Source: Candidatus Saccharimonadota bacterium
Lineage (GTDB): Bacteria; Patescibacteriota; Gracilibacteria; BD1-5; UBA6164
Direction: 5' to 3'
Assembly: GCA_965229705.1 (NCBI GenBank)
Contig: OZ245922.1
Span: forward strand, 60,001-92,000
DNA: 32,000 bases
A model generated the notes under the pieces. The model saw only the letters and a list, made by a program, of their open reading frames with translations. It was not told where the DNA came from and ran no database searches. Position 1 is the first letter of the stretch; every line of letters begins with the position of its first letter. A program made the translations under genes and the position numbers. This document shows, one piece after another, positions 23 through 25,876 of this stretch.

Positions 23-1096
23 CTATTGAATTGTATCAACTTCTTCAATCTTCAGTTGTCGTTTTTTAGTATCATCAGGAGCAATCATCACAATATCTTT
101 ATCAATAATATCGAGGCGTTTTTTGCCATCATTGTAGTGATTGACTGTTGTATTGAGAGCGTTTCCGAGTTTTTGGTACCCCAGCTCATATTTTTCGAGA
201 TCTTTTTGGAGTTTGAGAACATATTTTTGGATTTCTTTTGCTTGTTTTTCGATTTGTAGAGACTTCATTCACTGGATAACTGTCTGGAGATAGGCATAAA
301 AACCGCTTGGGGAGCAGATGATGACTTTTTTTGAAAAGCCATATTCTATGAGTTTTTGAGGAGCTATATCTCACAGTTTATTGATAAAAATATCATAATA
401 CATTCACTCTGCAGGAATGAGCATAAAAGCGAAATCTGTAGTGCCTTCATTGGGAAGAATATACTTTGCGACTTCATCAATTCGAGTATGTATATCTTTT
501 TTGAGAGCGTTGGAATAACTCTTGATCACAAAATCTTCTTCGGCTGAAACAAGTTTTTCATAGTTTTCTTGGGGAAACTTTGCGTCTATAGGGATAGTCA
601 TATTTCAGACAAAGAGTGCCGCATCAACGATACCTGTTGAAAGCTGATACTGTAGTAAATATTGACCCTCAGTAAAGACATTTTCCAGAAGTTCTTTGAG
701 GAAATATTCTCAGAGATTTCCTCGTCTTTTTGGATTCTTGAGAATACTCTCGAGTCACTCAAGGCGACTTCATATATCTTTGATATGCTTATTTGTTTCA
801 GTGATTTCTGTCAGTTTTTTGGTGATGTTTGCAATATTGGTATTGGATATATGAGCGACTTCTTGAGAGTTTTTTATCGTTTGAGACATATTCTGCGTGA
901 GAGACTTGGTACTGTCTGAGAGCTTTGTATCAAGAGTATGCGAGAGGTGTAGGAGCTGTTTTTGGAGGAGCTGGAGTTCTCAGGAGTTATTTTTTCATTG
1001 ATATTTTTTTGAAAGTAGCAGTATCACTCAAACACATACTCCTATAAGAAGTACAAAAGAGAGTGAGAGCAGGATAAAAAATATATCGAGGGACAT
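23..1096 (-). CDS. rmuC: DNA recombination protein RmuC (357 aa with TGA = Gly)
   Basis: Track fragments 23..268 and 404..601 share one frame and join through in-frame TGAs. N-terminal TM helix MSLDIFFILLSLSFVLLIGVCVGVILLL. Motif KNPKRRGNLGEYFLKELL, where the G of the G-E pair is the TGA at 710-712. Further RmuC-like stretches: IDAKFP, FMLIPAEG, VIICSPSGFYAYLQTV. ATG at 1096-1094, true stop at 25-23. Confidence 0.85.
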
Positions 1097-1192: not shown

Positions 1193-3724
1193 ATGTTTAC
1201 GAGGATACTCTCTAAATACCATATACATATGTACTTTTTACAGCAGATATACACGCAGTTTTGCTCTCATGTATTCTTAAGATTTCAGACTCCAGAAGAG
1301 GCGATGATGCAAGACAGGCAAGAATGAATCGATGATATCGATGAAGCACAAAAATATATAGAAGCGCTCCAAGCATCACAATCTATCGTATGAAAGCATG
1401 TACAAATCTTGTCCAACTTTCTCACAAAGGTCGAGGCGTGAGAGATAGCCTGACTCTCATCTGAAGATGCAGAGTTTTTACCACTCAAAGAAAAACTTGA
1501 TCGAAAGATAATAGAGCTCGAAAATCTCAAAGGAGATAGAACACTTCTCTCTCATGTGCAAGATAATGCTCTTGAGGATGTAGGTATTGAGGCGTATAAA
1601 GAAGTGATTGATACGAGTATTGAGAACAGAGAAAAGTGAGAATTTTTTTCGCGACTCGAAAGCGTTACGATTGAAAGTTTACAAGAAGGTGAAGCTAACA
1701 GTATTATTACAGAATTTGGAGAAGTATATATTTCTCAATGGCAAGCAGAGCTTGCTGAGCAAATAAGGTTCGAAACACCAGACGCAAAAACGCAGGGATT
1801 TATAGAAAAAATAGCGCAGATTCAGAGTATTTTTGAGATGGAGTCTTCTTCAAAAAATGGAGAAAGAAGTGGTGAGGTGATAGAGTTTTATAATAAGATA
1901 AAAGATATAGAAGAACCCCTCACTCTTGAAAGTGCAAAAGGTATAGTTGAGGAGTTTGGTTTCTGACTTATTCGATCATGGATAGATGAAAAACAGGAGT
2001 TTCTCCAATCTGATCCTCAATTTTCAAATCATATAGCATGACATATACAGCAGGCAAAAGAGATTTTGAGACTGGCTGACAATCGAGACTTTGAAGATAT
2101 GCAGGAGCTTGTCACGATGAAGAGAGAAGATTTTTTTACGCGTTATGATCACACTCAGAGACTCCGCTATGTGACTCGCGAGGCTATTGATCCAACAAGC
2201 CTAGAAGTTGATACTGAAATGGAGTTTCAGTTTCATTTTCTCTGAGAACTGAATACTGACCTAGAACGCCTCTCAGCAGGAGATGTCCTCCCAGATACGG
2301 TAGAGGCAGTAACAAAGGGGGATAAGACCTATACTCGTCGTGGACCTCTGGGAGACTTTGTTGAAGATACTTCAGATGGATCATTGTGAGCAAGACTTAC
2401 GCTCCTTGATGGAGAAACACTCACTATCAAAACACTGAGAACAGATGACGCACTTTCATCAATATATGCAGGCATAGATGAAACGCTACAAGAGAGTGGT
2501 CTAAACGGAGCAGAGCTCGATGTGGCTCGTCAGGCACTCAATACGTGACAAGATATTCCACCAGCAGAAGTGACGCAAGCTCTTGTAGAGTATGCCAGAT
2601 CATGAGGAAATATCGAAAAAGAGCTAAACAATATGTTTGATGTTTTTGGCGTGATTGCAGAAAGTTTGTGAGAAAATTCACTTGTAGGAAAACTTCTCAA
2701 AGGCTTTATTGATATGCTCTCAAGCTCCGATCTTTTGGCAGATGAGGGAGAATGATGACTTGGAACACATTCATTTGAATGATTTTGGAATTATGGTCCT
2801 GTCTGAGATCAACTTGCAAGTTTTTTGATCACACACAGACCAGTATATAATGGACAACCATATTACTGTGGACAAAATGTTTGAGAAGCGCTGAATCACT
2901 TTGGTATAGAAGGTCTGCCCCAGTCAGGAAGACATGGTCATAAGTGGGCAGATATCTGTAGATCAAGACCAAACCAGTTTCAAAAATGGGAGTGAAGAGC
3001 TGAAGATGCTCCTGCGTGAGCAGTGATCTCTTATCATAAAAACACATGATGAAGTCAAGAAAGGCAAGAGCATGGTCATGTGGAAATCGCTCTCGGAAAT
3101 GGGCAGTTTTATTTTGGGCAAATCAATAATCATCCGGGAGGAAGCAATACTTCACCACAACCATGAGAATATGAGATATATATTTCTATTGCGAAAAAGG
3201 TCGATGGGAGTGATAGAGACCTCTGATTTGCGGATGCAGAAGGGATAAATACGGATAGTTTACATCCTCATAGAAAAGCCATTGTTGATGCAGCACTGAC
3301 ATCATATAATCAGAGAGATATTTGTGATGCAGAGCACTGTACTGATTGGGTAGATAAGATATATGCTAGGGCTGTTTTAAATAGTGTACATAATAAGCCA
3401 CAAAAATTTAATAGTGTGAGCGAGGTTTCACCAACTGGTAGTGGTGACACCTGACTGCGTCCAGGAGATGAGGGTTATGCTGGAAACGATGTGATAAATA
3501 CACTCGAACCAGGTGATCATATCATGGTAGATCATGGACCAAACTATGGGCGATGAAGAACTCATAGTGCCATCATACTCGAAGCGCCGGTTGATGGTAT
3601 TGCTCGAGTTGTGAGCTATCCAAATCATGGACGTCCTCCACAGATAGAACGTTATGATCTTACATGACAAGGGAGATGAGGAGCAAGACCAGAAAAGATA
3701 CTCAGAGTACATTCTGCTGTGTAA
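1193..3724 (+). CDS. Large (843 aa) multidomain cell-wall hydrolase: long alpha-helical/acidic N-terminal region, CHAP-like amidase domain, second NlpC/P60-like Cys-His domain
   Basis: One frame stays open from ATG 1193 to TAA 3722-3724 once the many TGAs are read as Gly. The standard-code track lists no + ORF here at all. C-terminal part: YNGQPYYCGQNVGEALNHFG...HGHVEIALGNGQFYFGQ (Cys/His papain-like CHAP signature). This is followed by ICDAEHCTDWVDKIYARAV...GDHIMVDHG...THSAIILE (NlpC/P60-like). It is paralogous to the C-terminus of 7334..10714. No obvious signal peptide. Confidence 0.7.
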
Positions 3725-3737
3725 TATTGATACTGGT

Positions 3738-3846
3738 CTTAAGGAAACTCTGAAAAATAGAAAAATTCTAATCCTCTCTGGCTCTATGGAGACATCTCTC
3801 CTTTGAAAAAGGAGAGAAAAAAGGAGTTTCTCAGAGCTTCCTTAAA
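3738..3846. repeat. MITE/REP-like intergenic repeat, type A core (copy A1)
   Basis: Terminal inverted repeats cttaaggaaactctgaaaaa ... tttctcagagcttccttaa. They flank the core ctaatcctctctggctctatggagacatctctcctttgaaaaaggagagaaaaaaggag, which contains the hairpin ctctccttt-gaa-aaaggagag. Near-identical copies at 4666, 5460 and (inverted) 29334. Confidence 0.8.
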
Positions 3847-3871
3847 ATAAAATCTATAAATCAATTACGGT

Positions 3872-4660
3872 ATGTTAGAACATTTTAATACTTCATGATC
3901 TTGAGAAATCCCTTTTCATAGCAATGAAAAGGGTATTGTGGAAGATCAGTCTCTAGAGCTTGTAATGAGACCGGTCTCATCGAATTTCAGAGACTCCTTA
4001 ACACAGCTGCAAGAAGATATATGAGGTAGTAGCGATGTTTTGCCTGTAGATTTTTCAGAAAATATCAATACGAGAATGAGTCCTGAAGAGCTTCAAGAAC
4101 ATATAGAGAGGTACATAAATGAGCTTGATGTTGAGATACTCACAGACGAAGAGTTTCTCAGAGAACTCATAGCTTTATGTGGAAGACGATCGATATATGT
4201 TGAAGATATGCTCTTTATGATGTATAGTGAGTCCTACCTAGATCCTCAGGCGCAAAATAGTCAGTCATGAGCAGTATGACTCATACAATTTATGCCTTCA
4301 ACTCTCACGCGTCTTGCAAAATCTCTTGGTCATGGAACAATGACGCCGGAAAACATGAAAAATATGTCAGGGACACAGCAACTCGAATATGTAGAGGCAT
4401 TTTATGCAGGGTTTTGAGAACGAAATCTGGACTCTTTAGAGAAACTCCATCTTGCAGCTTTTTATCCTGTGGCTTTATGAAAGCCAGAAGATTTTGTACT
4501 CGGGAGTGAGAGCTCTAATCCTCGTCGTTCTCACATTATTGCAGAGCAAAATCCTGCTATTGCAGACGCTGCCGGAAGAGATGATGGACTGATAGATGTA
4601 CAGGGATTTTATCGTTATGTTCAAGGAAAGGTAGCTGAGACTGGTCTCAATATACGGTAA
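3872..4660 (+). CDS. Lytic transglycosylase, SLT-domain protein (start uncertain: ATG 3872, TTG 4040 or ATG 4073)
   Basis: Track ORF 4040..4270 continues through TGA to TAA 4658-4660. Catalytic-region signature: MYSESYLDPQAQNSQSGAVGLIQFMPSTLTRLAKSLG (E-S ... GL.QFMPsT of SLT/goose-lysozyme-like transglycosylases). The longest ORF starts at ATG 3872, but 3900-4003 contains a perfect hairpin and a repeat remnant, so a downstream start is plausible. Confidence 0.65.
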
Positions 4661-4665
4661 GATAG

Positions 4666-4793
4666 CTTTGGAGAAAAATCTCTCATCCTCTCTGGCTCTA
4701 TCGAGCTATCTCTCCTTTGAAAAAGGCATTTTCGCTTTCTCGAGACCGGTCTCTTTTACACGAGATTTTTCTATTTCTCAAAACTTCCTTAAA
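4666..4793. repeat. MITE/REP-like repeat, composite: truncated type A core fused to an inverted type B core
   Basis: Left part tcatcctctctggctctatcgagctatctctcctttgaaaaagg is a type A core. Right part cattttcgctttctcgagaccggtctcttttacacgag...tttctcaaaacttccttaaaa is a type B core with GAGACCGGTCTC at 4742-4753, in reverse orientation. The repeat overlaps the last codons of the tsaC-like gene. Confidence 0.7.
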
Positions 4794-5349
4794 ATCGTCT
4801 AACATAATCAACCTCGCAAGAGTCTCAGATAAAGCGAAAAACATCTGAGGCTTTGTTGTCTTCATCAAGATAGTATGATCCTAGGAGTTCTATCTGACCA
4901 TTTTTGAGATAGTATCAAAAATCTTCTTCTACCTCTTCGGGAGTATATATCTCTCACTGACGTGAAATATTTGCTGAAGTCATCCAAAGAGGACCATGAG
5001 TTTGTATCAGCATATCTTGCACATCATTGTGACTTACTCGAAAAGAGAGTTCTTCATAAATATCTTTATTGATTAGGTATTGTTCTTTTTCGTCTTGGTA
5101 ATTGAGGAAGAGTGATATATATGTTGACTGCGTTAATATGGTAAATGGTCGAGGATAGTTTCTGAGAAACTCTATCTGTTCCTGATTTAGAGTAGTATTT
5201 TCCTTGATCCAGTCAAAGCTTTCTACCAAGATTGCCATAGGTTTTTCGAGAGAGCGTTTCTTGATTTTGTAGATTTGCTCATAGCTATTTTTATCATGCA
5301 GTGGGCAGGCAATACCATAACAGGTATCTGTAGGAAGAATAAAAATCAT
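4789..5349 (-). CDS. tsaC: L-threonylcarbamoyladenylate synthase, YrdC/TsaC-family domain protein (186 aa)
   Basis: N-terminus MIFILPTDTCYGIACPL...KIKKRSLEKPMAILV...PLWMTSANISRQ matches the YrdC-fold motifs (PTDT.YG, K.R...KP, TSAN.S). The track stop at 4954 is a TGA. Read-through continues GEIYTPEEVEEDFGYYLKNGQIE... to TAA at 4791-4789. Confidence 0.75.
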
Positions 5350-5459
5350 AGGGGAAAATTGAATGGTATGTAAATTGTAATATGAAGTGCAACTATCTTT
5401 TTTAAAAAAGAGATTTTGTCAAAGTCATTTTTTGCGAAGTTTCTAAAAATGTGCTATTG

Positions 5460-5650
5460 TTAAGGAAGTTTTGAGAAATAAAAAAATTTTCTAATCCTCC
5501 CTGGCTCTATCGAGTCATCTCTCCTTTGAAAAAGGAGAGAAAAAAGGAGTTTCTCAGAGCCTCCTTAAGGAACTTCTGTGAAACAAGAGAATTTTGTGAA
5601 AGGAACTGGTCTCGCGAAAAACGAAAATACCTTTTCTCAAAGACCTTATA
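5460..5650. repeat. MITE/REP-like repeat, tandem composite: full type A unit (5460-5569) abutting a type B unit (5564-5650) that shares one terminal cttaagg
   Basis: Type A unit: ttaaggaagttttgagaaa...ctaatcctccctggctctatcgagtcatctctcctttgaaaaaggagagaaaaaaggagtttctcagagcctccttaagg. Type B unit follows: aacttctgtgaaacaagagaattttgtgaaaggaactggtctcgcgaaaaacgaaaatacc ttttctcaaagacctta. Confidence 0.75.
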
Positions 5651-5670
5651 ATCAAATAATACATATTGCT

Positions 5671-7245
5671 ATGTTGTGAACAACATATCTCTACATGCTT
5701 GCACTCTCCTCATATACTTTCTCCTTTGGAGAAGGTGCTGAATGAAGCGAAGAGACAGAACCTCAACCATCTATATCTGATCTTCTTCGAGAGTTCCGCG
5801 AACAAAATGAATATAATCCATGAAATACTCCAGCTCAGAGTGCTATTCCTGAAGGTTTTTATGAAGTAGAGGGATACGGAGATATGTTATTTCAGAGCTT
5901 TTTCGATTATTTGGAAGGTATAGAGTTAAAACCAGAAAATATGCATGAGGTAATAGAGACAGTGCAAGATAAGTATAGTATATCTCTTCTCCATCGAGTG
6001 ATACAGGAAAATACTGCTCAAAGGACAAAGGCTATAACGCTGATGATCCTGATGGATAAGAGAGGACTCTCAGAGGATGATACACAGAGGGGAAAAACAC
6101 TATCTTGGGAGGAGTTTTTAGATGTGTATCCTCAGAGTGAAAGGCTCGCCTTTCTCACTCGCCATGGGATGACAGATGACTCTTGCAAACTATGAGCACA
6201 GGGAGAATTTTATTTTTATTTTGCTTGAGTATATAACAGAAACTTGAGCGAAAACTTTGATGTATTTACAGTTATGCCAGAACATGTTCAGAGCTTTACT
6301 ATGGAATGAAACGAATATGTGCGAGATGCAGAGAGAAAATGATTTTATAGTCAAACAGGAGAAGAGGCTGATATTTCTCAGTGAAGCAAGTTTGAGATAT
6401 CGAGCTTTGTCTCAAACAAAGTTGCACAGTGACAGGATCAGTGAAATGAAGATCCTACTGTTCCACAGACACTTACCCTTGAACCTCTTTCTGCTGAAAC
6501 GCCTGAACCACAGACATTTTCTGCACCAGAAGTTCCTCTACAAATACCTGAAAATCAGGAAGATATCCCTGTACAGCATGTTGTTGCTCTCAGAGAGAGG
6601 AATAGGCTCTTATCCTGAGATATACACTCAGTTGTGAGCGCCTATAGAGAAAAATACCCAGGAACATCTGAAAGTGAAAATATCCTCTCTTCGGGAACGC
6701 TTGCTTTTTATGAGCAAGACTCTCAGTGGTCAAAGGCTCTTGCAGATATGCGAACAAGAGTTCCTGATATCGATACCAAGCCACTAGCGTTTGTAGGAGA
6801 CTTTGATAATGAGGAGTTACTTATCATTGCTCATGGTCAAGCGGTAGTAGTGAAATCTCTTATGTGAGCATCGAGACCTCCACATAATAGCTTTCGAACC
6901 TCTACGCAGATGGCAGTCAGTGATCAAAAGCATGGAGATACCAGCCTCGCATGATCGGCAACGGTTGTAGGTGTTGCATTTTATTTTGGAGATGAATACC
7001 ATGTTCACGGAGTAGATCAGGGAAGGATCAATATTAACGGAGAAACTCTTGGCTGCACTACGACGGAGGCAGATCTCTTGCGTGATATAGCTCTGAATCT
7101 TGTAGAGCAGGGCTACGCTCGGGAAGATACAAGATACGGAACTTATAGGAGAACGGGAAGAAAGAATACTCATGGATGGAAAAGTCTGACAGGAAATACC
7201 ACAAGATATCTAATAAATACATCTATACCACATTTATTGTTTTAG
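5671..7245 (+). CDS. Hypothetical protein, 524 aa (function unknown; sits inside the cell-wall hydrolase island)
   Basis: Track fragments 5884..6195 and 6634..6867 are in the same frame. I checked every codon from 5671 to 7245 and found only TGA interruptions. First ATG after the upstream TAA (5566-5568) is 5671; TAG stop at 7243-7245. Contains a Pro/Glu-rich linker (TLTLEPLSAETPEPQTFSAPEVPLQIPENQEDIP). I recognise no family motif. Confidence 0.55.
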
Positions 7246-7333
7246 TAAATATTTTTCTCTGACTATTTTTTGATTCAATACAGAGAATATGATAGTATAT
7301 TGTTATAAATATTATATTATAATATATAAAGCG

Positions 7334-10300
7334 ATGCGAAATATATTTTTGAGAAGCATATACCATTCTTTTGAGAGTTTTATGACTCTTTCATTTGAAG
7401 GAAATAATGATAGAGGAAACGATGCTCAAACGGATAATATTCCTACAGGATCTGATTCTCAAGATACTACTTTTGAGTGAGATCATCGTTCAGAAGCTCC
7501 TGGTGTACTTGCAGAATCAACTGCTCAAAGATGAGATTTGAGAGCAAGTTTAGTGAACCCATCTGAGTGATCATCTACTCCTACACTCTGAAATTCACAA
7601 ATATCAGAACAATCAATAAACTGGGATACGACAGATTTTAATGTGGATGATATGTTTGAGAGCTATGAAGAATTTGCTGATCTCAAGAAAGATATTATAA
7701 AAATGAGTGCAGACTTTCAAAACTATACGCCTGAAGACTTTCAGAGAGCTCAAGAAATTTTAGATCGTGGTTTGGATGAATTGCATGATTTTGCTCAGGT
7801 GTATAACCATGACTTTATTGAAGATCATAAAAATAGTAGTCAAGATAATGATCCAGATAGAAAATATTATAAAGCCATCGTTCTTATTGGTGCAAAGGAC
7901 GAAAGAGGTCTTCCTGCTGAGTTAGCTGAGAATTTACAGAATATGACGGCTAATGAGTTTACTGAACAATATAATCAAAATGACAGAATCTTTATACTTA
8001 ATGCAAACGGTCATAGAGCAGAAGACCTAGAGGTAGGAAGTGAACTTACTATGTATATGTATTTTAATAATGATTATAATGCAAATTTTGAAAATTTGAA
8101 TCTTGGAGACACACTTCCAGATATTGTAGAGGGTATTACTATTCATGATATATGAAATACAGAGTTTACGAGACAAGGTCTTATTTGAGATTTTTATAAT
8201 GTAGACGGTGTTATGGCAAGAGCTACAATGTGAGAAAAAGTCATTATCCTCAGACTTCGTTCTCCACAAAAAGTTCAAGAAATGTATGATGAGATTGACA
8301 AGCAGATAGCTGACCTCCTTGCTGATTATCCAGAATCTCGGCATGAGTATATGCAAGGGATTGTGCGACCTCTCCTTTTGAGAGGTGAAGAGCTGCCAAG
8401 CAAGAGGTTTTTGGCATTTCTCAGTCATGATATAGTGAGAGACTTTTTATGAGGAGAGGATGCTATGCAGAGGAGAATGGCAGAGATCATGGAAGTATAT
8501 AAAAATCAGTCTTTTGATAGAGAGACTGTAGCTAACACTTTTAAATGGATCTTTTCTGATATACAAAAAGAACAAATACAAGAGGCTCTCTGAACAGATG
8601 ATATGAGAATATTAGCTGATATCATTGTTGTATACCAAATGTCAGAGAGTATGACACAAGCTACTTGAGTCTTTTCAGTGAGAGATGTAATTACAAGACT
8701 TACAGAAAAAATGGGAGTTTCTGAAGATATTTTCAAGACAGACGAAGAGTTACTCCGTGAATATCCATATGATATTGGAGAAGCAATCATATATATTGAT
8801 TTTCACTACTCAGAAGATGAAAGAAAAGATTTGCAGAGAGTACTTGGTTTAAATACTTATGACGCGAGTGAAATTGCTCTCGCAGTTGCTCTTTGGCAAA
8901 TCAAAAATAGGGACAACCCAGAGTTTGAGGATATTGCTGTTGATGGAAGACCATGAAGCTTGGAACTTGAGGAGCTTGGTATTACTCGTGAACAAAATGT
9001 TTCATTTAACGAGCAGAAGGCAGCTACATATATATGAAAGCAAAATGTGCAAGAGATAAGAAGACTTTTTCGCGCTAAAGAGACAGATAGTCTTGAGTTC
9101 CTTGCTCTCACGGTTGCTCGTTGGCAGCAAGCAAATGGCGCTTATGTTGATGGAATGCCTGGACCTAATACACTTGGCTCGTTAAGAGAAAACTATCCAG
9201 AATCACTTTTCTCCTCAGATCTATATGCGAAGTATGAAGATATAAATGGTCTAAAAAATCCTTCGATAGAATATAAAGAATCTATCTGGTGGGAAAAAGA
9301 CCCCAGTGCTTACAAAAGTTATAATATTATCGAAGCTGCTAGTTATATTGATGATCTTTCTTCAGATAATATAGAAAAATTGATTACTCTTTTTGATATA
9401 TTAGGAGAAAATATTGGCAGTGAAGCTATTGCTTATTGGATTGCAAAAGCTCAAATAGCGTATAACTCAAATCATCATATAGAGGACTTAGAAGGAGCTC
9501 TAGAGGTTACTGGTATACCCTCAGAGGAAACGCTTCAGGCATTATTTGGAGCAGAGACTCTTGATGAGGTATTTGAAAATAATTCTCAGTGAGAAGCAAT
9601 AAGTCAAATAGAATATAGAAAAGAAGATTATTACAACGAACACCAAGCGAGGTCGTATCTTAAAATGCTTTATACTGACGATCAGATCGGGCTGTTACAG
9701 AATGCATTTTTTCCTTCTAATACTGAAGATAATGATTCTAGTGATTTAGAACAGATTAACAATCTTACATCGGTAATCGCTGATTTCCAATTGCGTATAG
9801 GTTTGATACCTGATGGAAAAATATGACCAGAGACTAGACCACTTGTAGCACAATATTATCCAATTGAAGAATCTCAGTTAGAACCAGTAGATCGAACTAC
9901 TATAGTAGGGAATACTACTTCATCACAAAACAATCTCCTTGAAGGTACATGAGAGCCTGAAATAAACTATGAAGTAGCTATTAATTATATGGAGAAATAT
10001 TTTACAGTAAAGGATTTACGAAAAATTCGTAGTATGCTATGAAATGGTTGGATGAGAAATAGATGAATCGTAAATGCCGTAGCAGAGTATCAAAGAAACA
10101 ATAATATACCCGTAGACGGACTCCTCCGAACAGAATACCTTTTAGCAGGATTACCAAAACCAAATACAAATCCACAAGAAATAGTACAAATACATCCAAA
10201 AGACTTAGATATACAAGAAACAACTCTTTGACAAGAAATAGCGATATCTATTAATTATCATGGTACAATACATAACGCTAATGAGTTTACTTGTGGGATA

Positions 10301-10714
10301 AATGTTTGAACTGAGCTCATTGCAAATGGCTTTGAAAATATGCCTAGATCAAGGAGACATGGATATAGATGGGAAGAGATTTTAAGAGATAGGCCAGACC
10401 AGTTTCTCGATGTAACACACCTCTACACTCCATCCACAGCTCCTCCATGATCGGTTATATCTTATGATAAAAATACATGATGATCACAGCAGCGTCAAGA
10501 TTATGGTCATGTAGAGATAGCTCTTGGAGATATTGGAAAAGGTAAAAGATGATATTACTTTGGTCCGATTGAAAATAGACCAGGTTGAAGTAACCCAAAT
10601 TTTGAAGAAGGAACTTATAGTATATTTCTTCCGATTTCCAAGAAGATTCCAACGACGCCTTTACAGATAGCTCAAAATATTTTAACACCAAGTGATGTAG
10701 GGACTTTGGATTAG
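7334..10714 (+). CDS. Giant (about 1126 aa) peptidoglycan-binding / CHAP-like cell-wall hydrolase
   Basis: Track fragments 7289, 7643, 8678 and 9047 share one frame, and every line to TAG 10712-10714 was checked. Four PG_binding_1-like repeats: LAVALWQIKNRDNPEFEDIAVDGRPG; LTVARWQQANGAYVDGMPGPNTLGSL; IADFQLRIGLIPDGKIGPETRPLV; AVAEYQRNNNIPVDGLLRTEYL. C-terminal CHAP-like domain: EFTCGINVGTELIANGF...YGHVEIALGDIG. The start could be 7289, 7334 or 7382. Confidence 0.75.
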
Positions 10715-10740: not shown

Positions 10741-11466
10741 TTATAAATGATCCTTGAGAGGTATACCCACCTTTCGAGGATATTTTTTGTGACAAGATGC
10801 TATTTTTTGTATAAACACGATACTGCGTTCTTGGTCTGCGAGATGATAGTTTTTGATCTTATATATTTTTCCTCACAGTTTTGAGAGTGCGTTTTTGATA
10901 CTCTGAAATTCTTGCTTGTCTGTGAGCTTATACGCAGCAAGTATTCATCAAACTTTGAGAAGCGGGAGGCTATACTCGAGCAAGGTTGGAAAGTACGCAG
11001 TTGCTCGCGAAACAACGAGATCAAAACTCTCTCTATAGCGCTTATCCTGTCAAATGTTTTCGGCTCTTCCAGAGAGCGTTGTGATATTTTCCAGTTGTAA
11101 ACTTTGAGCAAACTCTCATACACATCTCAGTTTTTTTACAACAGAGTCTATAAGCGTAAAGGTTATCTCTGGATAAATAATAGCAAGAGGAATCCCAGGA
11201 AAACCTCCTCCGGTTCAAAGGTCGGCAACGGTAATAGTTTGAGACCGGTCTCAAAAAAATTCTTGTATTGATGTGGGAGAGAGATCAAAAAATACAGCGA
11301 GCATCAGAGAGTCGATAAAATGTTTTTCTATAACTCACTGCTCGTCTCTGATAGATGAGAGGTTTATTTGTGTATTTTTTTCAAGAAAGAGTTTCAGAAA
11401 CTCTTGAAACTTCTCTTGTTCTCGAGCTTCAAGCTCTATGTCATATTTTTTGAAGAGGTTTTGCAT
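10741..11466 (-). CDS. rsmG: 16S rRNA (guanine527-N7)-methyltransferase RsmG/GidB (alternative upstream ATG at 11529)
   Basis: Joined through TGAs: [20 protein letters not shown], then the SAM motif [33 protein letters not shown] (the first G is the TGA at 11217-11215), then SGRAENIG. TAA stop at 10743-10741. [12 protein letters not shown] (ATG 11466) fits the usual RsmG N-terminus better than the 11529 start. Confidence 0.85.
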
Positions 11467-13557: not shown

Positions 13558-13619
13558 AATTAGGAACTAAAGATTTTTCTTATATATATACAATGTATCT
13601 TTATTTACAATTTTCTCAT

Positions 13620-14255
13620 ATGAACAAAACACCATTTGTAGTCGATGAGGTTCACGGAGTTCTTAATACACCACGCAAAAGAACACTGGAAGAGTATCTT
13701 ACTCTTATAGAGTGAGAAAACGTTCAAGCATGTCTCAAAATGTATGAGGATGATAAGCATATGTATATCTCAGCTCCTGGTTCTTCTCACAATCATCAAC
13801 ATTGGTCAGGCTGATACTACGACCATATCCGAGATGTATGTTATCTTGCAGAACAGTTTTATGGTCTCTTAGTGAGTCTTGGGAGACGACCAGATTTTTC
13901 TCTCGGAGACGTAATACTGACATTGTTTCTTCACGATCTTGAAAAACCAGTAAAATATTCATGAACAGAAGAACAAAAACAAGAACTCTATTCTTTCTGC
14001 ACAGATGAAAATGATAAATGATGGTATCAGAACTTTATACTGTATAAGGCAGAGAAATATGGGATAGTACTTTCTGATATTCATCTAAATGCTATCAAAT
14101 ATGTTCATGGTGAATGAGATGACTACACTTGAAACAAGCGTACACAACTCCCACTTGCAGCGTTTATTCATAGTTGTGATACTATGAGTGCTCGTATGTT
14201 TTATGACTATCCTCTTGTAGGAGATAGAGTTCGGAACAAGAGTAATATAGAGTAA
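13620..14255 (+). CDS. HD-domain metal-dependent phosphohydrolase (211 aa; in-frame alternative ATG at 13593)
   Basis: Open through 6 TGAs. HNHQHWSGGYYDHIRDV ... LTLFLHDLEKPVKY (H...HD signature) ... AAFIHSCDTMSARMF. TAA stop at 14253-14255. The antisense track ORF 13735..13962 is a shadow of this gene. Confidence 0.65.
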
Positions 14256-14915: not shown

Positions 14916-17765
14916 ATGAGATATTTTGTCAGTATATTTTTCTGAGTTTTTCTCCTATGCATTTATACCTGAGTAAATGCTCATTTCCGTATTGTTGAGG
15001 TACTCCCAAATACCATAGATGATGCACAGCTAGAGTACATTACTCTCCAAAATATTTGCGATACTCCTTGAGATATCCAAGACTACATACTTTCAGATAA
15101 ACTCAAAGATTATCATATAGCAGACTCACTTATTATTCAGCCAGGCGAAAGAGTGACTTTTCCCAGAACACAGACCAAACTGGTACTCAATAATACCGAT
15201 GAAGAACTCTTTGTAACAAACCCTCAAGGAGAAGTAGTAGATCAGGTTTCCTATAGCACTTCGGAAAAATGAGAACCTCTCGTATTTTCTCAAGATTCAT
15301 GAGAAGACTGCTGAGTATCAAGCTCAGAAACTTCCGTAGAGTTAGAAATTGTTGAAGTACTACCAAATACTGTTGATGATGCAGAGCTTGAATATATAGT
15401 GATACAAAATTTTTCTTCAGAACCCTATGATCTTCAGCATCATATCCTCTCAGATAAGCTCAAAGACTATGTTATTACGGACTCAAAAATAATCCTCCCA
15501 GGAGAAACTCTCGTATTTCCTCGAACAGAAACAAAACTCGTTCTCAACAATACGGATGAAGAACTCTTTTTACAAAATCCCCAAGGAGAAATTATTCATC
15601 AAGTTGCCTATGAGGACTCAGAGAAATGAGTTCCTATATTTTTTCATAAATCGACTGATGAGTGAGAGCAAGAGAGTTGAGAGACATATGAAGATAATCA
15701 AGAAGATGATAACTCCTGAGAAGAAGAAATACAAGAAGATCCAGAGCAAGAAGATGAAGGTCAGTGAGAAGAAAGTGAAGAAATAATTGTACAAGAAGAT
15801 ACGCAAGAAACTCCAGAAAGTCTCGAAGTGCAGATATCACTCCAAAATCCGAGCTATATTTTTGAAGTTTCAGAAAATACCTATCATTGTGATAAGGACA
15901 AAGAAGTGTGTAAAGTAAATTTTGATATGCGTGACAGTTTCTCAGAGGATTTTCCCGAAAAAGACTATGAGTGCAAGATAGATTTTTGAGTCTTGTGATA
16001 CAGTGAAGAGTCTCAAAAATGTAATCCCAATAAAATAGAAATACCTATAGGAGAGTTTGAGATATATTTCCAAATATTTTATGAGGAGAGCAGTCAGCAA
16101 GTATGAGACAGAAAAATACTTATCATACACACGCAAGAAGAAGGTAATACCGATAATCAAGAAAAAGAGCAAGATACAGATGAGAGCATACAAGAAGGTC
16201 ATCACGATGATGAGGATTCGCAACAGGAGAATGAAGAAGATACAGAAGTAAACCAAGAAATAGATGAGCAAGAAGATGGGTATCAGTGAGAAGAAAGTGA
16301 AGAGGTAAGCAGAGAAGAAGAGGCCCAAGAAAAGCCAGAAAGTCTTGAGGTGCAGGTATCACTACAAATCCCCAGTTATATTTTTGAAGTCTCAGAAAAT
16401 GTTTATCACTGTGATGGAGAGAAAGATATTTGTAAAATAAATTTTGATATGCGTGACAGTTTTTCAGAAGATTTTCCTGAAAAAGATTATGAGTGCGAGA
16501 TAAATTTTTGAGTCTTGTGATACAGTGAAGAATCTCAAAAATGCAATCCCAATACTATAGAGCTTCCCGTAGGAGAGTTTGAGATATACTTTCAGATATT
16601 TCACGAGGAGAACAGACAACAAGTTGGAGAGAAGAGAATGCGTATTATTAATACGCTAGAGGTACGCAATACTGTGAAACCTCAAATACCAAAGATTCAT
16701 ATTCTCCATCCAAAAATACAGGTACAAAGTGGAGTCAGCGGGAAGGGAAGATATTTTCACTGTGAAAAAAACTCCTGTAAAATGAACCTCAAATATGAAA
16801 AACGCCATGACTCAGAAAGGTGTTTCTGGCATTGGGGACATTCAGGAGCTCTTTTATCTGATCACTATACTTCTCATCGTTGTAATCCTGGGGCTGTGAG
16901 TATTCCTCTCTGAACACACGATATGTCACTGAAGGTGTATGAAGATGACCATGAAAGTAATAGAAAGAGGACAAAGTTTTATGTCTATAATATTTTGGAA
17001 GAAGATATAGTAGATGAGCAAGATACTGGAGAAGAAGAAACAGATGATCTCCTGATAGTGAAGCAATATACCTCTTCTACCTCTTTGCCGATGCCTTTGA
17101 GTGGAAGTATTTCTTTTGAGGAGAGAAAAGATGTAAGTATTCAACTGCAAGGAAAACTCTCAAGTACAAAATCACTTCAGCGGAACTCTTTACGCTGTTT
17201 TGATACAGAAAAGTGCCATGTAAATTTTAATAGTAATATGAGAGGAGACGGTGAAGATCTGGAGTATTTTTGGATATATGACGGAGAGATTTTTTCCTAT
17301 GAGAAAAACCCAAAAGCATTTTGGATGCAGTGAACGGGAAAGCATAAGGTATATTTTTATTTGGTAAAAAATGCAAAAGTACTCTGAAAATCACAATTTA
17401 TCGTAGATATTATTTCAGAAAAAAAAGACGCTCTTCTCTCATCAGCGCCAGAAATATCATCGTCATATAAACAAGTAAAGCAGACAACAACCTCCCAAGA
17501 TCGAAGTTACTGAAAAACACTTTCTCCAGAGTCTCCTAAAAAAATACAGATAGTTGTTCATCCACAAAAAAAACAGCAAGATCTGGATCATCAGATATCA
17601 ACAAAGATGGTGTGAGTATATGTTATAGTGATAGCAGCGATATTTTTTATAGGACTTTATTTTTTTGTTTCTTTATTGATTGTATTTTTTTCCCAGAGAT
17701 TTCTCACAGAATCTTATATGATCCATTTTCTTACTCGTCAAAAGGTAGTGCTTCTTATTGGGTAG
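14916..17765 (+). CDS. Surface-anchored repeat protein (949 aa): signal peptide, 2 lamin-tail (LTD) domains, acidic linkers, 4 Cys-containing beta-rich modules, C-terminal TM anchor
   Basis: MRYFVSIFFGVFLLCIYTGVNA is a signal peptide. Two LTD-like units have the pattern IVEVLPN..DDA.LEYI.(L/I)QN...D(I/L)Q..ILSDKLKDY.I.DS.II.PGE...FPRT.TKLVLNNTDEELF..NPQGE..(D/H)QV(S/A)Y. Very acidic linkers (EDNQEDDNSGEEEIQEDPEQEDEG). Repeated modules with spaced cysteines (YHCDKDKEVCKVNFDMRD...YECKIDFG...QKCNPN). C-terminal helix VGVYVIVIAAIFFIGLYFFVSLLIVFF. Fragments 15399, 16638 and 16923 are all in frame 0. Confidence 0.7.
15745..16662 (+). repeat. In-frame tandem duplication inside the LTD protein gene (period 522 bp = 174 codons)
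   Basis: cagtgagaagaaagtgaag occurs at 15762 and again at 16284. ccagaaagtctcgaagtgcagatatcactccaaaatccgagctatatttttgaagtttcagaaaat matches ccagaaagtcttgaggtgcaggtatcactacaaatccccagttatatttttgaagtctcagaaaat, and the similarity continues for about 400 bp at high identity. A separate 357-bp-period duplication (14991 vs 15348) gives the two LTD domains. Confidence 0.8.
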
Positions 17766-17825: not shown

Positions 17826-19829
17826 ATGGACAGAAAAAACATTCGAAACTTTTGTATCATTGCACATATTGATCATGGGAAATCAACGCTTGCAGATAGA
17901 CTCTTGGAGATCACTGGAACAATAGAAAAGCGTGATATGAAACATGGGCAAATGCTTGATACTATGGAGCTTGAACAAGAAAGAGGAATCACAATAAAAT
18001 TGCAACCTGTTCGCATGCTCTGGAAAGATCATGAACTCAATATTATAGATACTCCAGGTCATGTAGATTTTCAGTATGAGGTTTCTCGGAGCCTGGCATC
18101 TGTAGAGGGAGCACTACTGGTGGTAGATGCTACACAAGGGATAGAAGCGCAAACACTTTCAAATGTGTATCTTGCTATAGAAAATGAGCTACAGATTATC
18201 CCCGTTATCAACAAGATAGATCTTCCAGCTGCAGATGTGGAGAGAGTCAGTGAGGAAATCATCAGTTTACTTGGGTGTTCTTGAGAAGATATTATTCCTG
18301 TCTCTGCAAAAACATGAGAAAATGTAGACGCTATTTTAGATGCAGTTTTGAAGAGAGTCCCAGAACCAAAAGTGTATGTTTCTGAGTCTTTACCACCAAA
18401 AAAAGAGGAGAGTATAACAGTAGATCAGCAGGAGTTGAAGGCTCTGGTCTTTGATAGTCAGTATGATTCATATAGGGGAGTCGTATCTTATGTAAAAGTA
18501 TTTTCTGGAGAAATCCAAAAATGAGATATACTCCATTTTCTCAATACTGGAAAAAAGATAGAAGCCTTGGATGTATGATATTTTTCTCCTCAGTATGAAA
18601 GTAGTAAAAAAATTGATAATGGCTCTATAGGATATGTCGTAACAGGCCTAAAATCCATTCGTGATGCACAAGTATGAGATACTCTCTGGAAACCTGAAAA
18701 TGTGCAGTGACCAAAAGCAAAACTCGAAGAGGCGAGTTCTATTGAATGATTTAAAACGGTAACACCATTTATATATGCGGGAGTTTTCCCGATGGCAACA
18801 GATGAGTATCCACAGCTTGCTGATGCGATGGAACGACTGATGTTGAATGATTCGGCTCTTACAAAAGAATCAGAGGCGTCAGCCGCTCTTGGGCAGGGAT
18901 TTCGTTGTGGATTCCTTGGGTTATTACATCTGGATATTGTAAAAGAGCGTCTTTTCAGAGAGTTTGATATGGATGTTATCATGACTTCTCCGCAGGTAAC
19001 TTATAAAATGCGTATGTATGGGGACAAGACCTCAGAGTTTTCACGGCTATCACCAGAACTTGGTATAAGTCTTGTTCCTAGTAGTAAATATAGCACATTA
19101 TCTTGACCAGCATCTTTTTCTGAGCATTCCTCATCCTCAAGAAGCCTCGAAAATTCTGAGGAGAGTTCTTGTAAGTATACATTTCTCTCGATATCAAATC
19201 CTGAGGATATGCCTCCAAGAGAAACGGTTGACGCGATTTTTGAGCCAGTTGCAAAGATTGAGATTATTAGCCCTACAGAATATGTAGGAACACTTATGCA
19301 GTTATGCCAGGAAAGAAGGGGAGTATTTAAAAATCAGCAATTTATTGATAATTCACGAGTGATGCTCAGTTATGAACTTCCTATGAACGAGCTTATTGGT
19401 GACTTCTATGATGAGATGAAGTCTCTTTCAAGTGGGTATGCGTCTTTGCATTATGAGTTTCTTGAGTACCGAGAAGATGATCTGGTAAAGCTTGATATAT
19501 TGATAGCAGGAGAGAGAGTCTCGGCGCTTTCTTTAATGTGTCATCGTAATCAGGCGAGGTATATCTGAGGTAAGATCGTCAAAAACTTAAAAGAAGTCGT
19601 TCCTCGAGCTCAGTTTGCTATTGCTTTGCAGGCGGCTATTGGAAGCAGTGTTGTTGCTCGTGAGACACTTTCGGCATTTCGAAAAGATGTGACAGGACAT
19701 TTGTATGGTGGAGATGTCAGCAGAAAGAAGAAGCTTCTTGAAAAGCAAAAAAAAGGGAAAAAGAAGATGAAACAGTTTGGAAAAGTGAGTCTTCCAAGTG
19801 AAGCTTTTGTAAATTTGTTAAAGAAATAG
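17826..19829 (+). CDS. lepA: Elongation factor 4 (LepA), 667 aa
   Basis: Fragments 17826, 18792, 19209 and 19626 share one frame. [18 protein letters not shown]; DTPGHVDF; NKIDLPAA; VSAKTGENV, whose G is the TGA at 18315-18317; [22 protein letters not shown]. The C-terminus [27 protein letters not shown] is typical of LepA. Confidence 0.95.
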
Positions 19830-20937: not shown

Positions 20938-21025
20938 CTTCCAGGAAACTCTGAAAAGCAAAAGTCTTGTGTAAGAGAACGGTCTCGAGAAAACAAAAAG
21001 GAGTTTCTCAAAGGTTCCTTTAAAG
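20938..21025. repeat. MITE/REP-like repeat, type B core, degenerate (copy B5)
   Basis: cttccaggaaactctgaaaa gcaaaagtcttgtgtaagagaacggtctcgagaaaacaaaaaggag tttctcaaaggttcctttaaag. Lies between convergent genes. Confidence 0.7.
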
Positions 21026-21849: not shown

Positions 21850-21927
21850 GGTGCTCGTAGTTCAGTTGGTTAGAATGCCAGATTGTGACTCTGGAGGTCG
21901 AGGGTTCAAGTCCCTTCGAGCACCCCA
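21850..21927 (+). tRNA. tRNA-His: tRNA-His (anticodon GTG) with G-1 and encoded CCA
   Basis: g-gtgctcg ta gttc agttggttaga at gccag attGTGac tctgg aggtc gaggg ttcaagt ccctt cgagcac c cca. The 7-bp acceptor stem pairs perfectly. The extra 5' G opposite discriminator C is the bacterial tRNA-His hallmark. T-loop ttcaagt. Confidence 0.9.
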
Positions 21928-23393
21928 TTTGAAAAATTTAAAATTCTGATGATTTCAAACAGCTCATTTTCCTGAATATAGAGCTGTTTTTTAGTGTCTA
22001 CAAAAAGTTCAAGGACAATCATTTCAATGATTTCTATTTTTTTATTCAAATCACCGTTTTTCCACGCAGTAGAGAGGTTTAAGAGGAGTTCGACTGATTT
22101 CTCTACAGCCATCAAAATTTCATCATTTATATACAAAATTCACTCCAATTCTCTCGTATATTTTAAACTTTCATCAAGATATTTTTTTCGTTGTTTATCA
22201 AAATCCTCCTGAGAAATTTTATCTTCACATAGTAGATTCAGTAAATTCTGCTGTTTTCCATTGATTCATCATAATTTAGAGTTTATTGACTGAAATTGAG
22301 ATTTAGCTTCTTTGTACTGTTCCGAAAAGAAGTTATGCAAGAGAGTTCGCACATCTCTTAGGGTGTCTTCGTCTATTATTATATAGCTTCATAGAGTTTT
22401 CTCAAACGCCTCAAGTATTATTTTTTGGTTAATATTCACATTGATTCCATCGCAGGTATCTTTGTTCGAAGAACGGTAGTAAATATTTCATTTTTTCTCG
22501 TATGCTCTAAAAGGCGTTTTTTTGCCCCAGTTTCATTTTATTATTCATTTGAGTGGGAATTTATCCTGTTCAACACTTTCGAAGCTCTTATGTTCTCTTT
22601 TTACTCGAATTTGGTTTATATATTCTGTGCTTACTATCAATTTATGATTATGTTGGAAAACTCTTCCTGCAAAATCATAGAATCCATCATGAAATTTATG
22701 AAAAAGCCATCTTCTCACTTGTTCTGCAGTTACAGGCGTGTTATTCTTTGTTGTGACTCAGTATTTATCGAACATTATTTGAGCTGTTTCTTTGTAAGAG
22801 GTTCACTTTTTGAGTATTCCAAGCATTTTTCTCCACTTCCACTCGTTATCTGGATGAGGGCGTACATCAGTTTCTCATTTTCTGATACGATAATTTTCAT
22901 ATCAGAAAGGAACTTTGTTCATTACTTTAAATTTATTTTCTGCAGCGTGAAGCATTTTTTTCTTCGTGTCTTCTGCTCTGTCTTTGTTTTCTTTTTTCCC
23001 GAGCATTAAAAAAAGTTCAAGACTGAGAACATCTCAAGAATTGTTTGACCTATATAGTTTATCTCAAATATAGACTCACTTTGCAAGTCATTCTTCAAGA
23101 ATCATTATTATTGCAGCCGTATCTCAAGTATTCCTTGAGAGTCTTTTTTCGTCATCAATTATGATAAAATCTACTTTTGAATCTTTTACTAGTTCAATAA
23201 GTTGTTTGAATCATGTTCTCTTTCAGGTATTTTTTATACTAGCACTATGACTTTCTGTGATTTCTTCAATTACACTTAAATCGTTCCTGTCAGCGATTTT
23301 TCGACAGGATTCAATTTGATACTCAAGAGAATTTGTTTGCTTATCATCTCTGTTTGTAGACTTTCTGCAATATATTACTGCGCGATTACTCAT
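21870..23393 (-). CDS. Large serine recombinase / integrase (507 aa to the TAA; 495 aa to the TGA at 21908-21906)
   Basis: MSNRAVIYCRKSTNRDDKQTNSLEYQIESCRKIADRNDL...VDFIIIDDEKRLSRN is the resolvase catalytic domain (YcR.St...Q..SLe.Q, catalytic Ser in RKST). It is followed by a recombinase domain (VPFGYENY...) and a long coiled-coil tail. About 20 TGAs are in frame. The last codons are the reverse complement of tRNA-His positions 21870-21927. Confidence 0.85.
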
Positions 23394-23413
23394 AATAAAA
23401 ATATACCTAGTTA

Positions 23414-24199
23414 CTAATTACACAGACTTCTATCTACATAAGTCTTATTCCCGTTACTATTCCAATAATAACACCCACCACGAGGTCATGTATAGTAAGT
23501 CTTATATCCACTAGTATTTGATTTGTAATACTCATATTCTTCCTCCTCTTCATAATCCTCCCAAATACCCCTTTCGAACCTAATAGCGTTCTCCTCATAT
23601 GTTTGAAACTCCTTTTGGTATTTATAGGCTTTGTTATATGTGTACTCTTCGGCATATCAGCTATTCACCATGTCTCAGTTTATATTTTCTTCTTCAAGAA
23701 AGATATAAGCTAAAACTCTGTCATATCTATCATACATTCATTGTGACTCATCAAACTCTATACTTACTTCTTTTCAGAGTATTTTTTCCGAGAGATATTC
23801 GCTTGCTTCACTATATCAAGCCTCTCATCTTTCGGGAGTATCTATACCAATCATTCTTACAGTAATTATTTCATCTCATTTTTGGTATTTTATCGTATCC
23901 CCATCAACGACATCTACTACAAGAAACTTTGTAGGATCGGGCAGTGTAGTTATTTCGTCTATATAAGATACCAGCATATAAAATAATGCGTATTCTCGAG
24001 AATCACTAGGAAGCAGAGACATATACCACTCTAAAGCAGTTTTCATTGATTCTAACTCCTCAGGATCTTCTTCATATATAACATCTATTTCTTCATATGT
24101 TCCTCGAAGAATCTTATAATCATTCGAGGTAAAATCATATGCAACGGCATGTGATACCATTGAAAAGAACAAGACAAGGGAGATAAGTATATTTTTCAT
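23414..24199 (-). CDS. Secreted thermonuclease (staphylococcal nuclease/SNase-like), 261 aa
   Basis: Track ORF 23876..24199 (signal peptide MKNILISLVLFFSMVSHAVA) runs through a TGA into VVDVVDGDTIKYQKGDEIITVRMIGIDTPERGEAGYSEASEYLSEKILGKEVSIEFDESQGMYDRYDRVLAYIFLEEENINGDMVNSGYAEEY...AIRFERGIW. These are the SNase motifs DGDT, R(l/m).GiD.PE, DrY.R.LAy and GlW. C-terminal tail: YYTGPRGGCYYWNSNGNKTYVDRSLC. TAG stop at 23416-23414. Confidence 0.8.
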
Positions 24200-24208
24200 A
24201 CAGATTTT

Positions 24209-24733: not shown

Positions 24734-24790
24734 TTTTTTTGTTAAAATTACAGTATCTACTAGTTCTTCAAAAGGCTTGTATTATTTCAT

Positions 24791-24823: not shown

Positions 24824-24865
24824 AAAAAATTTGACTTCATTTCTAAAATAATATATTATGTCACT

Positions 24866-24921: not shown

Positions 24922-24926
24922 ATATT

Positions 24927-25433: not shown

Positions 25434-25434
25434 C

Positions 25435-25836: not shown

Positions 25837-25876
25837 TATAACTAAAAAACATATAAATATAAGCTGATTATATTAA

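Follow-up and report, generated by a model that had tools for sequence, protein, structure and literature searches.

A modular, peptidoglycan-directed protein family at the rmuC-tsaC locus of a code-25 bacterium, with a possible role at host or prey cell walls

Positions 1193-10714 of a 32,000-nucleotide stretch of contig OZ245922.1 (positions 60,001 to 92,000 of the contig; assembly GCA_965229705.1, Candidatus Saccharimonadota bacterium), referred to below as the window, hold an island of large proteins that carry domains directed at peptidoglycan. These proteins represent a rare modular family that is largely specific to genetic code 25, in which UGA is read as Gly, and that is clustered at a conserved hot spot between rmuC and the genes tsaC, rsmG and recG; this description of the family is secure. 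As to their function, we give about an even chance to a modular set of muralytic enzymes that is specific to the lineage, exported and probably directed against the wall of a host or prey cell, with both the export route and the target inferred. The gene structure, paralogy, domain content and a conserved position with variable content are shown directly, as is, at weak scores, the fold class. The general idea that predators using code 25 turn secreted peptidoglycan hydrolases on their prey is already published, as such enzymes were proposed to degrade prey walls in the code-25 predator Vampirococcus lugosii (PMC8080830). The leader sequence, the M module and the rmuC-tsaC hot spot described here go unmentioned in the searched passages of that paper, of a proteogenomics paper on Gracilibacteria and of a 2025 review of contact-dependent predation.

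Under translation table 11 the segment 1193-10714 falls apart into open reading frames of 60-180 amino acids, which are fragments only, and long open reading frames appear throughout the window once TAA and TAG alone are taken as stops. The meaning of UGA was read from LepA, in which five of the seven in-frame UGA codons aligned to PDB entry 2ywe fall on Gly (SAKxG, GD, VG, IGDT, PGF), and UGA is thus taken as Gly in the window. Code usage read in this way indicates a code-25 organism, as the initial annotation had it. With this code the segment resolves into four plus-strand genes of 843, 262, 524 and 1126 amino acids and one reverse-strand gene of the tsaC/YciO type, and the coordinates first given for four large genes filling the segment are reproduced. 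The genes of the island and its boundaries are as follows:

23-1096, minus strand: rmuC, the left boundary gene of the island (Pfam RmuC, E 4.9e-48)
1193-3724, plus strand: A843, an 843-residue protein from a code-25 open reading frame with 27 in-frame UGA codons, comprising leader, acidic and probably helical region, M, X and Y
3872-4660, plus strand: SLT lytic transglycosylase of 262 residues (Pfam SLT, E 4.4e-8, above cut-off)
4789-5349, minus strand: tsaC/YciO-like gene of 186 residues (Pfam Sua5_yciO_yrdC, E 1.1e-24, 87.3 bits against a cut-off of 25.1)
5671-7245, plus strand: B524, a 524-residue protein with the M module at nucleotides 6004-6429 and an orphan C-terminal domain
7334-10714, plus strand: C1126, a 1126-residue protein with an acidic N-terminus, M, PG_binding_1 repeats and X
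10750-11466, minus strand: rsmG/gidB, which bounds the island on the right (63% identity by tblastn to GidB of the related locus L005)

The tsaC/YciO-like housekeeping gene divides the island, with A843 and the SLT gene before it and B524 and C1126 between it and rsmG, beyond which recG follows in the gene map. A terminator with a 13-bp stem (10750-10781) lies between the converging C1126 and rsmG genes; apart from it, promoter and terminator scans gave counts at chance level. In public databases the copies of these proteins (P0001, which is A843, together with P0009 and P0091) are unnamed and translated with UGA as Trp.

A843 and C1126, the two giants of the island, are paralogous, as had been supposed from the start. 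Residues 537-670 of A843 align with residues 965-1105 of C1126 at 46% identity over a domain termed X (BLASTP, E 3e-34), and a second block common to both proteins upstream of X (E 2e-13) corresponds to the M module of about 150 residues. B524 carries M too (BLASTP E 3e-12 to C1126), which corrects its earlier description as a protein with no recognisable motif. Present in three of the four large proteins, M amounts to a common chassis. The parts of A843 are arranged as follows:

1229-1300, plus strand: conserved N-terminal leader, MYFLQQIYTQFCSHVFLRFQTPEE, fitting the consensus MYFLxQIxxQF...(Y/F)xxGPEG
2057-2551, plus strand: M module, residues 289-453, common to B524 and C1126 (BLASTP E 2e-13 to C1126)
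2768-3208, plus strand: domain X, residues 526-672, a CHAP-like domain of probable papain-like fold with candidate catalytic residues C559, H629 and E631
3227-3721, plus strand: domain Y, residues 679-843, a second Cys-His domain with candidate catalytic residues C716 and H791, S808 also being invariant

AlphaFold predicted M as four short helices, a beta-sheet core and then further helices, with a predicted local distance difference test score (pLDDT) of 93-98 over most of its length and lower values at both ends. No convincing neighbour was found in the PDB or BFVD, where the matches were partial (44-76 columns) and included SH3 domains, KOW-type domains and small phage proteins; a binding or docking role may be envisaged for M. 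Relatives have a more divergent form, M-prime (NFGxN...AGDILP...INGxxGxR...PRPGYY...GRYLAIHDGYxIEI), ahead of SLT and lysozyme-like domains. The long N-terminal regions had been described as acidic and helical. Acidity was confirmed for the island proteins (pI 4.1-4.8), and helicity was seen only from residue 289 of A843 onward.

In domain X, a Cys, a His and a Glu two residues beyond the His are invariant among 39 family members, and these residues map to C559/H629/E631 in A843 and C987/H1059/E1061 in C1126. Neither Cys-His domain rises above the cut-off of the CHAP and NLPC_P60 profiles: Pfam gave no match to either family in A843 and a sub-threshold CHAP match at the C-terminus of C1126 (15.2 bits against a cut-off of 26, E 0.032), and CHAP (PF05257) matched weakly in 4 of the 39 X members (best E 1.4e-4). 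The AlphaFold model of X, which was folded alone, is confident (pLDDT 89.8; predicted template modelling score 0.85). Its top Foldseek matches in the PDB were the phage endolysin Lys2972 (8tw1) and the C. difficile NlpC/P60 autolysin Acd24020 (7cfl), with a probability of 0.90, template modelling (TM) scores of 0.52-0.59 and E values of only about 0.1, none reaching 0.001, followed by a transglutaminase, PlyPy and PlyC as the next structural neighbours.

Domain Y is defined by C29, T30, H104 and S121, which are invariant in 37 sequences and equal C716, T717, H791 and S808 of A843, and the order of its motifs (HCTDW...PGDHIMVD...THS) appears to parallel that of NlpC/P60 proteins. No significant match to Y was obtained in Pfam, NCBIfam, PHROGs or a PDB sequence search; at the level of the family, one of the 37 members matches CHAP in Pfam (E 0.0014), and NCBIfam and PHROGs gave only scattered single-member matches. 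The model of A843 289-843 was folded from the M and Y rows of an alignment (A6) and shows pLDDT values of 85-98 in Y, the X region being poorly supported there. The fold lists for this model are headed by CHAP domains (LysGH15 4olk, S. saprophyticus 2k3a, CHAPK 4csh, PlyPy 5udm) and also contain papain-like deubiquitinases and phage lysins, with best E values of 4e-3 in BFVD and 0.16 in the PDB; as the aligned part of the 555-residue model is not reported, these matches were assigned to Y by aligned length. PDB sequence searches with X, Y and the C-terminus of B524, as single sequences and as profiles, returned nothing useful, and a match to ArsD at E 1.1 was put down to chance.

From the models, we read X and Y as divergent papain-like members of the CHAP/NlpC-P60 superfamily that belong to neither Pfam family. 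The proposal that A843 ends in a CHAP-like and an NlpC/P60-like domain is accordingly kept tentatively with respect to fold, given confident models whose best structural matches are CHAP and NlpC/P60 lysins at weak E values, and finds no support from Pfam in A843. Both domains probably share with the CHAP/NlpC-P60 lysins (4olk, 4csh, 5udm, 8tw1, 7cfl) a Cys-His papain-like alpha+beta fold with invariant Cys and His, and both occur in proteins that also have SLT or PG_binding domains. They differ from these lysins in sequence (10-15% identity, TM about 0.5, scores below the Pfam cut-offs), in the invariant H-x-E of X, and in their setting at the end of 800-1100-residue proteins with leader and M, instead of in short endolysins or Sec-exported autolysins.

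The C-terminal domain of B524 is an orphan, with no Pfam match even at E 10 and no PDB match. A word-index homologue search returned only the window's own protein for A843 and, among 5.8 billion proteins, only B524 itself for B524, and NCBIfam and PHROGs gave nothing for either. An HG-x13-GC motif in this domain (H446...C462, nucleotides 7000-7056) recalls the active site of YkuD L,D-transpeptidases and lacks the conserved Arg of the YkuD signature HG...(S/T)xGC(I/V)R. The first island gene of the related loci L002 and L005 has a motif like the HG...GC of B524; the hhalign comparison across the motif was weak (E 0.003, probability 10%), BLASTP of the B524 C-terminus against the L002 gene was not significant, and the YkuD-like link is best regarded as a lead, not a finding.

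The second gene of the island does encode an SLT lytic transglycosylase, as annotated, with a domain at about nucleotides 4145-4522 that scores 33.1 bits against a Pfam cut-off of 21.3 (PF01464) and contains the catalytic Glu-Ser motif (YSES...SGAVGLIQFMP). SLT domains of like type are fused to M or Y in the relatives P0008 and P0059, as read from their sequences. C1126 is laid out as M (nucleotides 7841-8308), three to five PG_binding_1 repeats (8816-10168) and X (10226-10648). PG_binding_1 (PF01471) reaches 54 bits overall, above its cut-off; scanned singly, three repeats are detectable (E 5.5e-4, 8.9e-4 and 3.7e-3), one is weak (0.2) and one gives no match. The four repeats originally counted in this protein are therefore about right, and the CHAP-like label given to its C-terminus falls short of the Pfam threshold.

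A HMMER search with A843 289-843 against 1.84 billion representative proteins found only 89 relatives. Local hidden Markov models (HMMs) over these relatives detected M in 20 proteins, X in 47 and Y in 42, in the combinations MX, MY, MXY and YX as well as each alone, and some relatives additionally contain SLT, lysozyme-like (GKYQF), NlpC plus 3D, classical CHAP and LysM regions according to a reading of their sequences. Trp content exceeds 2.5% in 65 of 87 relatives, which is the signature of code-25 genes translated with code 4, and the family is thus largely confined to recoded lineages. A genome scan with back-translated patterns returned three loci only, probably since UGA-coded Gly breaks such patterns. 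The match at L004, from Streptomyces, is partial, covers 38 residues and was disregarded.

A hydrophobic N-terminus is lacking in all four island proteins (Kyte-Doolittle maximum over 19 residues below 1.0), in agreement with the initial observation that the large proteins lack a classical signal peptide. Two neighbouring genes, encoding a surface protein with Lamin Tail Domains (LTD) and a nuclease, do have clear signal peptides (Kyte-Doolittle 1.98 and 1.77). A843 opens with the conserved leader listed above, which is too little hydrophobic for a Sec signal. The same pattern is found in many relatives and consists of MYFLxQIxxQF, about eight mixed residues, an aromatic residue and GPEG or a similar motif; an HMM of the leader, built without A843, matches A843 at E 4.4e-5 among all open reading frames of the window and the related loci. 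Because the conserved motif begins at Met13 (nucleotide 1229), A843 probably starts there, which would give a protein of 831 residues. The spacing of the hydrophobic positions (2, 3, 4, 7, 11, 14-15) would suit an amphipathic helix closed by Gly-Pro.

The leader motif opens 16 of 60 long homologues, a fraction that is a lower bound since the start codons of metagenome-derived homologues are unreliable, and it also opens tandem genes in L002, L003, L005, L007 and L015. A word-index homologue search with the leader alignment gave no match. A DNA pattern scan of the metagenome collection was seeded with the leader (M-Y-F-L-[KQE]-Q-I-x-x-Q-F) and is independent of the lytic domains. The complete UGA-containing open reading frames that it recovered are nearly all island genes, and those that were scanned carry lytic domains (X, Muramidase, NlpC/P60-like), the exceptions being an acidic protein of 216 residues and a probable fragment of 176 residues.

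The position of the island is conserved and its content is variable. The gene rmuC also flanks the islands of L001, L002, L005, L007 and L015, which makes it the neighbour in every related genome examined, and wherever both flanks were read (L002, L005, L015) the place between rmuC and tsaC-rsmG-recG is occupied by tandem leader genes, with the tsaC/YciO-like gene at the right edge. Between 2 and 5-6 tandem leader genes adjoin rmuC in L002, L005, L007 and L015, and the closest island proteins of related genomes are about 40-55% identical to those of the window. In L002, from a metagenome-assembled genome of Candidatus Peribacteria, rmuC is followed by five or six tandem plus-strand leader genes and then by tsaC, rsmG and recG; the cargo comprises domains of the HG...GC and lysozyme-like types, X, a C-terminal domain resembling VgrG3 (Pfam E 1.2e-6) with another Cys-His domain, and M-prime with SLT. 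L005 has the same layout with four leader genes. L015, recovered by the leader pattern scan on a contig of 991 kb, reads recG, rsmG, tsaC, two small genes, leader genes of 673 and 387 residues, and rmuC, the 387-residue product giving a sub-threshold NlpC/P60 match. L007, from the same scan, has rmuC, a leader gene of 452 residues that matches Muramidase (PF11860, E 3e-34), and a 660-residue gene with a leader-like start and a C-terminal end that reads like X. The sister strain L001 has the same genes as the window at 96% DNA identity.

Between rmuC and the A843 orthologue of L001 (3322-7536, corresponding to about 1100-1190 of the window) stands an extra gene of 1404 residues, in which an ATPase region of the AAA_5 type (MoxR/McrB-like) is combined with ten WG_beta_rep repeats and a C-terminus that has no annotation. 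As this gene has no leader, M, X or Y, the spot also accepts unrelated cargo.

Small proteins of 174-206 residues close the islands beside tsaC in L002 (14887-15411), L005 (14122-14739) and L015 (9451-10005 and 10050-10670). Each has one hydrophobic segment and no Pfam match, and those of L005 and L015 have similar C-terminal ends (...LGLIPVEV and ...LKLIPLEA); an immunity or accessory role could be theirs. In tblastn searches, the 205-residue terminal protein of L005 and the 174-residue one of L002 had no homologue in the window.

The polymorphic-toxin-like layout recognised in the initial annotation is borne out, as a shared N-terminal part is combined with variable C-terminal lytic domains. 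Such a layout would also fit a locus for interbacterial competition, which kills rivals instead of serving to feed on a host and spares its owner through immunity proteins or a modified wall. The VgrG3-like domain of L002, known from a type VI effector family, is in line with this explanation, and the small hydrophobic-segment proteins at the ends of the L002, L005 and L015 islands could then be the immunity proteins. In contrast, those small proteins are without a homologue in the window, no small gene stands behind each effector, and a Pfam scan of the N-terminal regions returned no established trafficking domain, whether LXG, WXG, PAAR, Rhs or another. With type VI and type VII effectors (VgrG3, Tae/Tge, LXG) the island shares the common N-terminus, the swapped lytic C-termini, the lack of Sec signals and the tandem variable loci, whereas a known trafficking domain, nearby secretion or spike/PAAR genes and, in the window, paired immunity genes are missing. 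We know of no description of type VI or type VII systems in reduced, CPR-type bacteria (Candidate Phyla Radiation). A role as competition toxins is regarded as unlikely.

Likeness to phage tail-associated lysins had been suggested as well, and an origin from them found no support. On such a view the genes would be left over from a decayed prophage or tailocin and would encode tape-measure-like proteins, virion-associated lysins or endolysins that lysis, not secretion, sets free. Virion-associated lysins and tape-measure proteins do resemble the island in being long helical proteins with SLT, CHAP or NlpC domains at their ends. PHROG families of large phage proteins and of a baseplate hub are matched by the SLT protein (E 4e-19 to 4e-14), phage lysins are the best structural neighbours, a missing signal peptide is typical of endolysins, and there are MITE-like repeats in the island and a prophage-like region 11 kb away. 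The phage context itself is lacking: no capsid, tail, terminase, holin or integrase gene was found in the islands of six genomes examined, and pattern scans of 2.9 million viral contigs found neither the leader nor any relative of X or Y. The chromosomal position is moreover kept across genomes whose closest island proteins are about 40-55% identical to those of the window. A phage origin is considered very unlikely.

The main rival to a host- or prey-directed function is a self-directed one, in which the proteins would be autolysins for growth of the cell's own wall, separation of daughter cells, or insertion of pili and envelope machines, and their variability would reflect relaxed constraint. 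SLT enzymes commonly make space for envelope machines, the island stands among housekeeping genes at a conserved position, and there is no candidate immunity gene in the window, all of which would suit autolysins. Complete peptidoglycan synthesis in code-25 lineages, described in PMC8080830 and PMC11452946, would suit them too; work on SLT enzymes that make space for envelope machines is cited in the latter. Housekeeping autolysins, however, normally show one-to-one conservation and have signals of the Sec or lipoprotein kind, whereas here the number of genes and the types of lytic domain differ among related genomes, and Sec signals are missing although the neighbouring genes show that the organism uses them. 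The relatives, likewise without Sec signals, were found between rmuC and tsaC-rsmG-recG rather than in division or autolysin operons.

The comparison of the two sister strains also bears on this rival. A843 and the flanking DNA are 96-98% identical between the window and L001, whereas C1126 is a mosaic with respect to L001 13823-17035 in both its binding and its catalytic part: most of the M module is 94-100% identical, X is 68-80% identical, and the repeat region drops to 33-58% in parts (33-48% over residues 617-716 and 44% over residues 867-916). The pattern points to recombination or to diversifying selection acting on the wall-binding repeats. Taken with the shuffling of domains among genomes, the mosaic looks more like the pressure of a changing target than like housekeeping, and self-directed autolysins are judged possible, if somewhat unlikely.

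Several observations weigh against exported enzymes that attack a host or prey wall. With respect to the domains, the fold matches of X and Y are all weaker than E 0.001 with TM of about 0.5, the AlphaFold targets were the database versions with Trp at UGA positions, about 10 of the 46 rows of alignment A6 are misplaced in the Y region, and the hhalign profile comparison of X with Y was not significant. The notion of Y as a diverged copy of X was dropped on the last of these results. With respect to the leader, the HMM did not detect the N-termini of C1126 and B524, whose resemblance is visible by eye only, and the SLT gene has neither leader nor M module. Type IV pilus or secretion genes, for which a check of the neighbourhood had been suggested, were not encountered: no type IV pilus, recognisable secretion-system, holin or phage structural gene is present in the 32-kb window or within the ±7-10 kb read around L002, L005, L007 and L015. 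No candidate immunity gene was identified in the window, and the small proteins that end the islands of L002, L005 and L015 have no annotation. Finally, these bacteria make their own peptidoglycan, and self-directed roles are possible on that ground.

For the preferred reading, that of exported enzymes acting on a host or prey wall, the following mechanism is proposed. The hot spot of code-25 (Gracilibacteria-class) bacteria would store a changeable set of modular peptidoglycan hydrolases, each typically built from a non-Sec leader of about 25 residues, a long acidic and largely helical spacer, the M module of about 150 residues and one or two C-terminal lytic domains. Export would proceed by a Sec-independent route that recognises the leader, after which the M module and the PG_binding repeats may hold the proteins on a cell surface or wall. 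X and Y would cut stem peptides or cross-links, and SLT would cut the glycan strands of a wall. The target would most likely be a host or prey cell, given that these lineages are reduced and that the described members are epibiotic predators.

Among described predators, Vampirococcus offers the closest parallel in the proposed prey-wall role and the code-25 lineage; its enzymes are described as predicted to be secreted, with no report in PMC8080830 of a family in a cluster. The wall hydrolases that Bdellovibrio uses in predation, according to the same source, are alike in the proposed role of opening or sculpting the prey wall and differ in being DD-endopeptidases of other folds.

Three copies of a repeat resembling a miniature inverted-repeat transposable element (MITE) lie within the island:

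3752-3845, no strand assigned: MITE-like repeat copy 1, with terminal inverted repeats TTAAGGAAnnTCTGAGAAA around a 10-bp hairpin, 100% conserved in L001
4672-4726, no strand assigned: partial MITE-like repeat copy
5475-5568, no strand assigned: MITE-like repeat copy 2, upstream of the B524 gene

Interruption of the island by such repeats, in addition to the tsaC-like gene, had been noted at the outset and is upheld by their terminal inverted repeats. The element of about 94 nucleotides has a further copy of 88% identity at 29335-29428 (reverse) in the prophage-like region, and a partial copy of 26 nucleotides lies at 20995-21020; to judge from these positions, the repeat is dispersed in the genome and not confined to the island.

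The prophage-like region spans 21851-32000 and begins with a tRNA-His (21851-21927), which a large serine recombinase gene (21870-23417, minus strand) overlaps by its 3' end. It continues with a secreted SNase-like nuclease and with genes that read as ImmA-like, NYN-like, recombination and VRR-NUC-like, and it includes a small glucosaminidase-like protein at 31469-31834 (Pfam E 1.1e-4). Most of its genes are rich in in-frame UGA, so that the element also uses code 25.

Among the genes beyond the right boundary, 13600-14255 encodes a 211-residue protein downstream of recG that has no Pfam match and whose H...HD...D-like pattern suggests, on reading alone, an HD phosphohydrolase. At 14916-17765 lies the gene of a 949-residue surface protein that has a signal peptide and a C-terminal membrane anchor, along with two Lamin Tail Domains (Pfam E 1.5e-21) and a large internal duplication of an acidic Cys-containing region. 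An LTD protein is located at a similar place near recG in L005 and L015, which makes it part of the conserved neighbourhood. The lepA gene (17826-19829) encodes a Ser-rich insertion of about 55 residues at approximately residues 398-453, which is absent from the solved LepA/EF4 structures and splits the alignment to them into two blocks.

A bolder interpretation, rather unlikely on present evidence and put forward tentatively, is that the leader is the address tag of a previously unrecognised Sec-independent route of Gracilibacteria-class, UGA-as-Gly bacteria that is reserved for wall-degrading effectors, that M is a new fold docking them to the surface of the producer or to the wall of the partner, and that the rmuC-tsaC hot spot is a host-range or predation toolkit diversifying by domain swapping.

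For annotation the locus carries a warning, in that Pfam and NCBIfam recognise nothing in its three large proteins beyond the PG_binding repeats; since the database entries are code-4 mistranslations in which each UGA became Trp, the family as a whole goes unnoticed in standard annotation. For the biology of code-25 CPR bacteria, some of which are proven epibiotic predators, the locus gives a compact list of candidates for passage through the wall of a partner cell, comprising two unclassified Cys-His families, an SLT enzyme and an orphan domain, together with the shared module and the conserved leader that is not of Sec type. As the rmuC-tsaC landmark recurs in related genomes, the question of how such bacteria pass that wall becomes testable.

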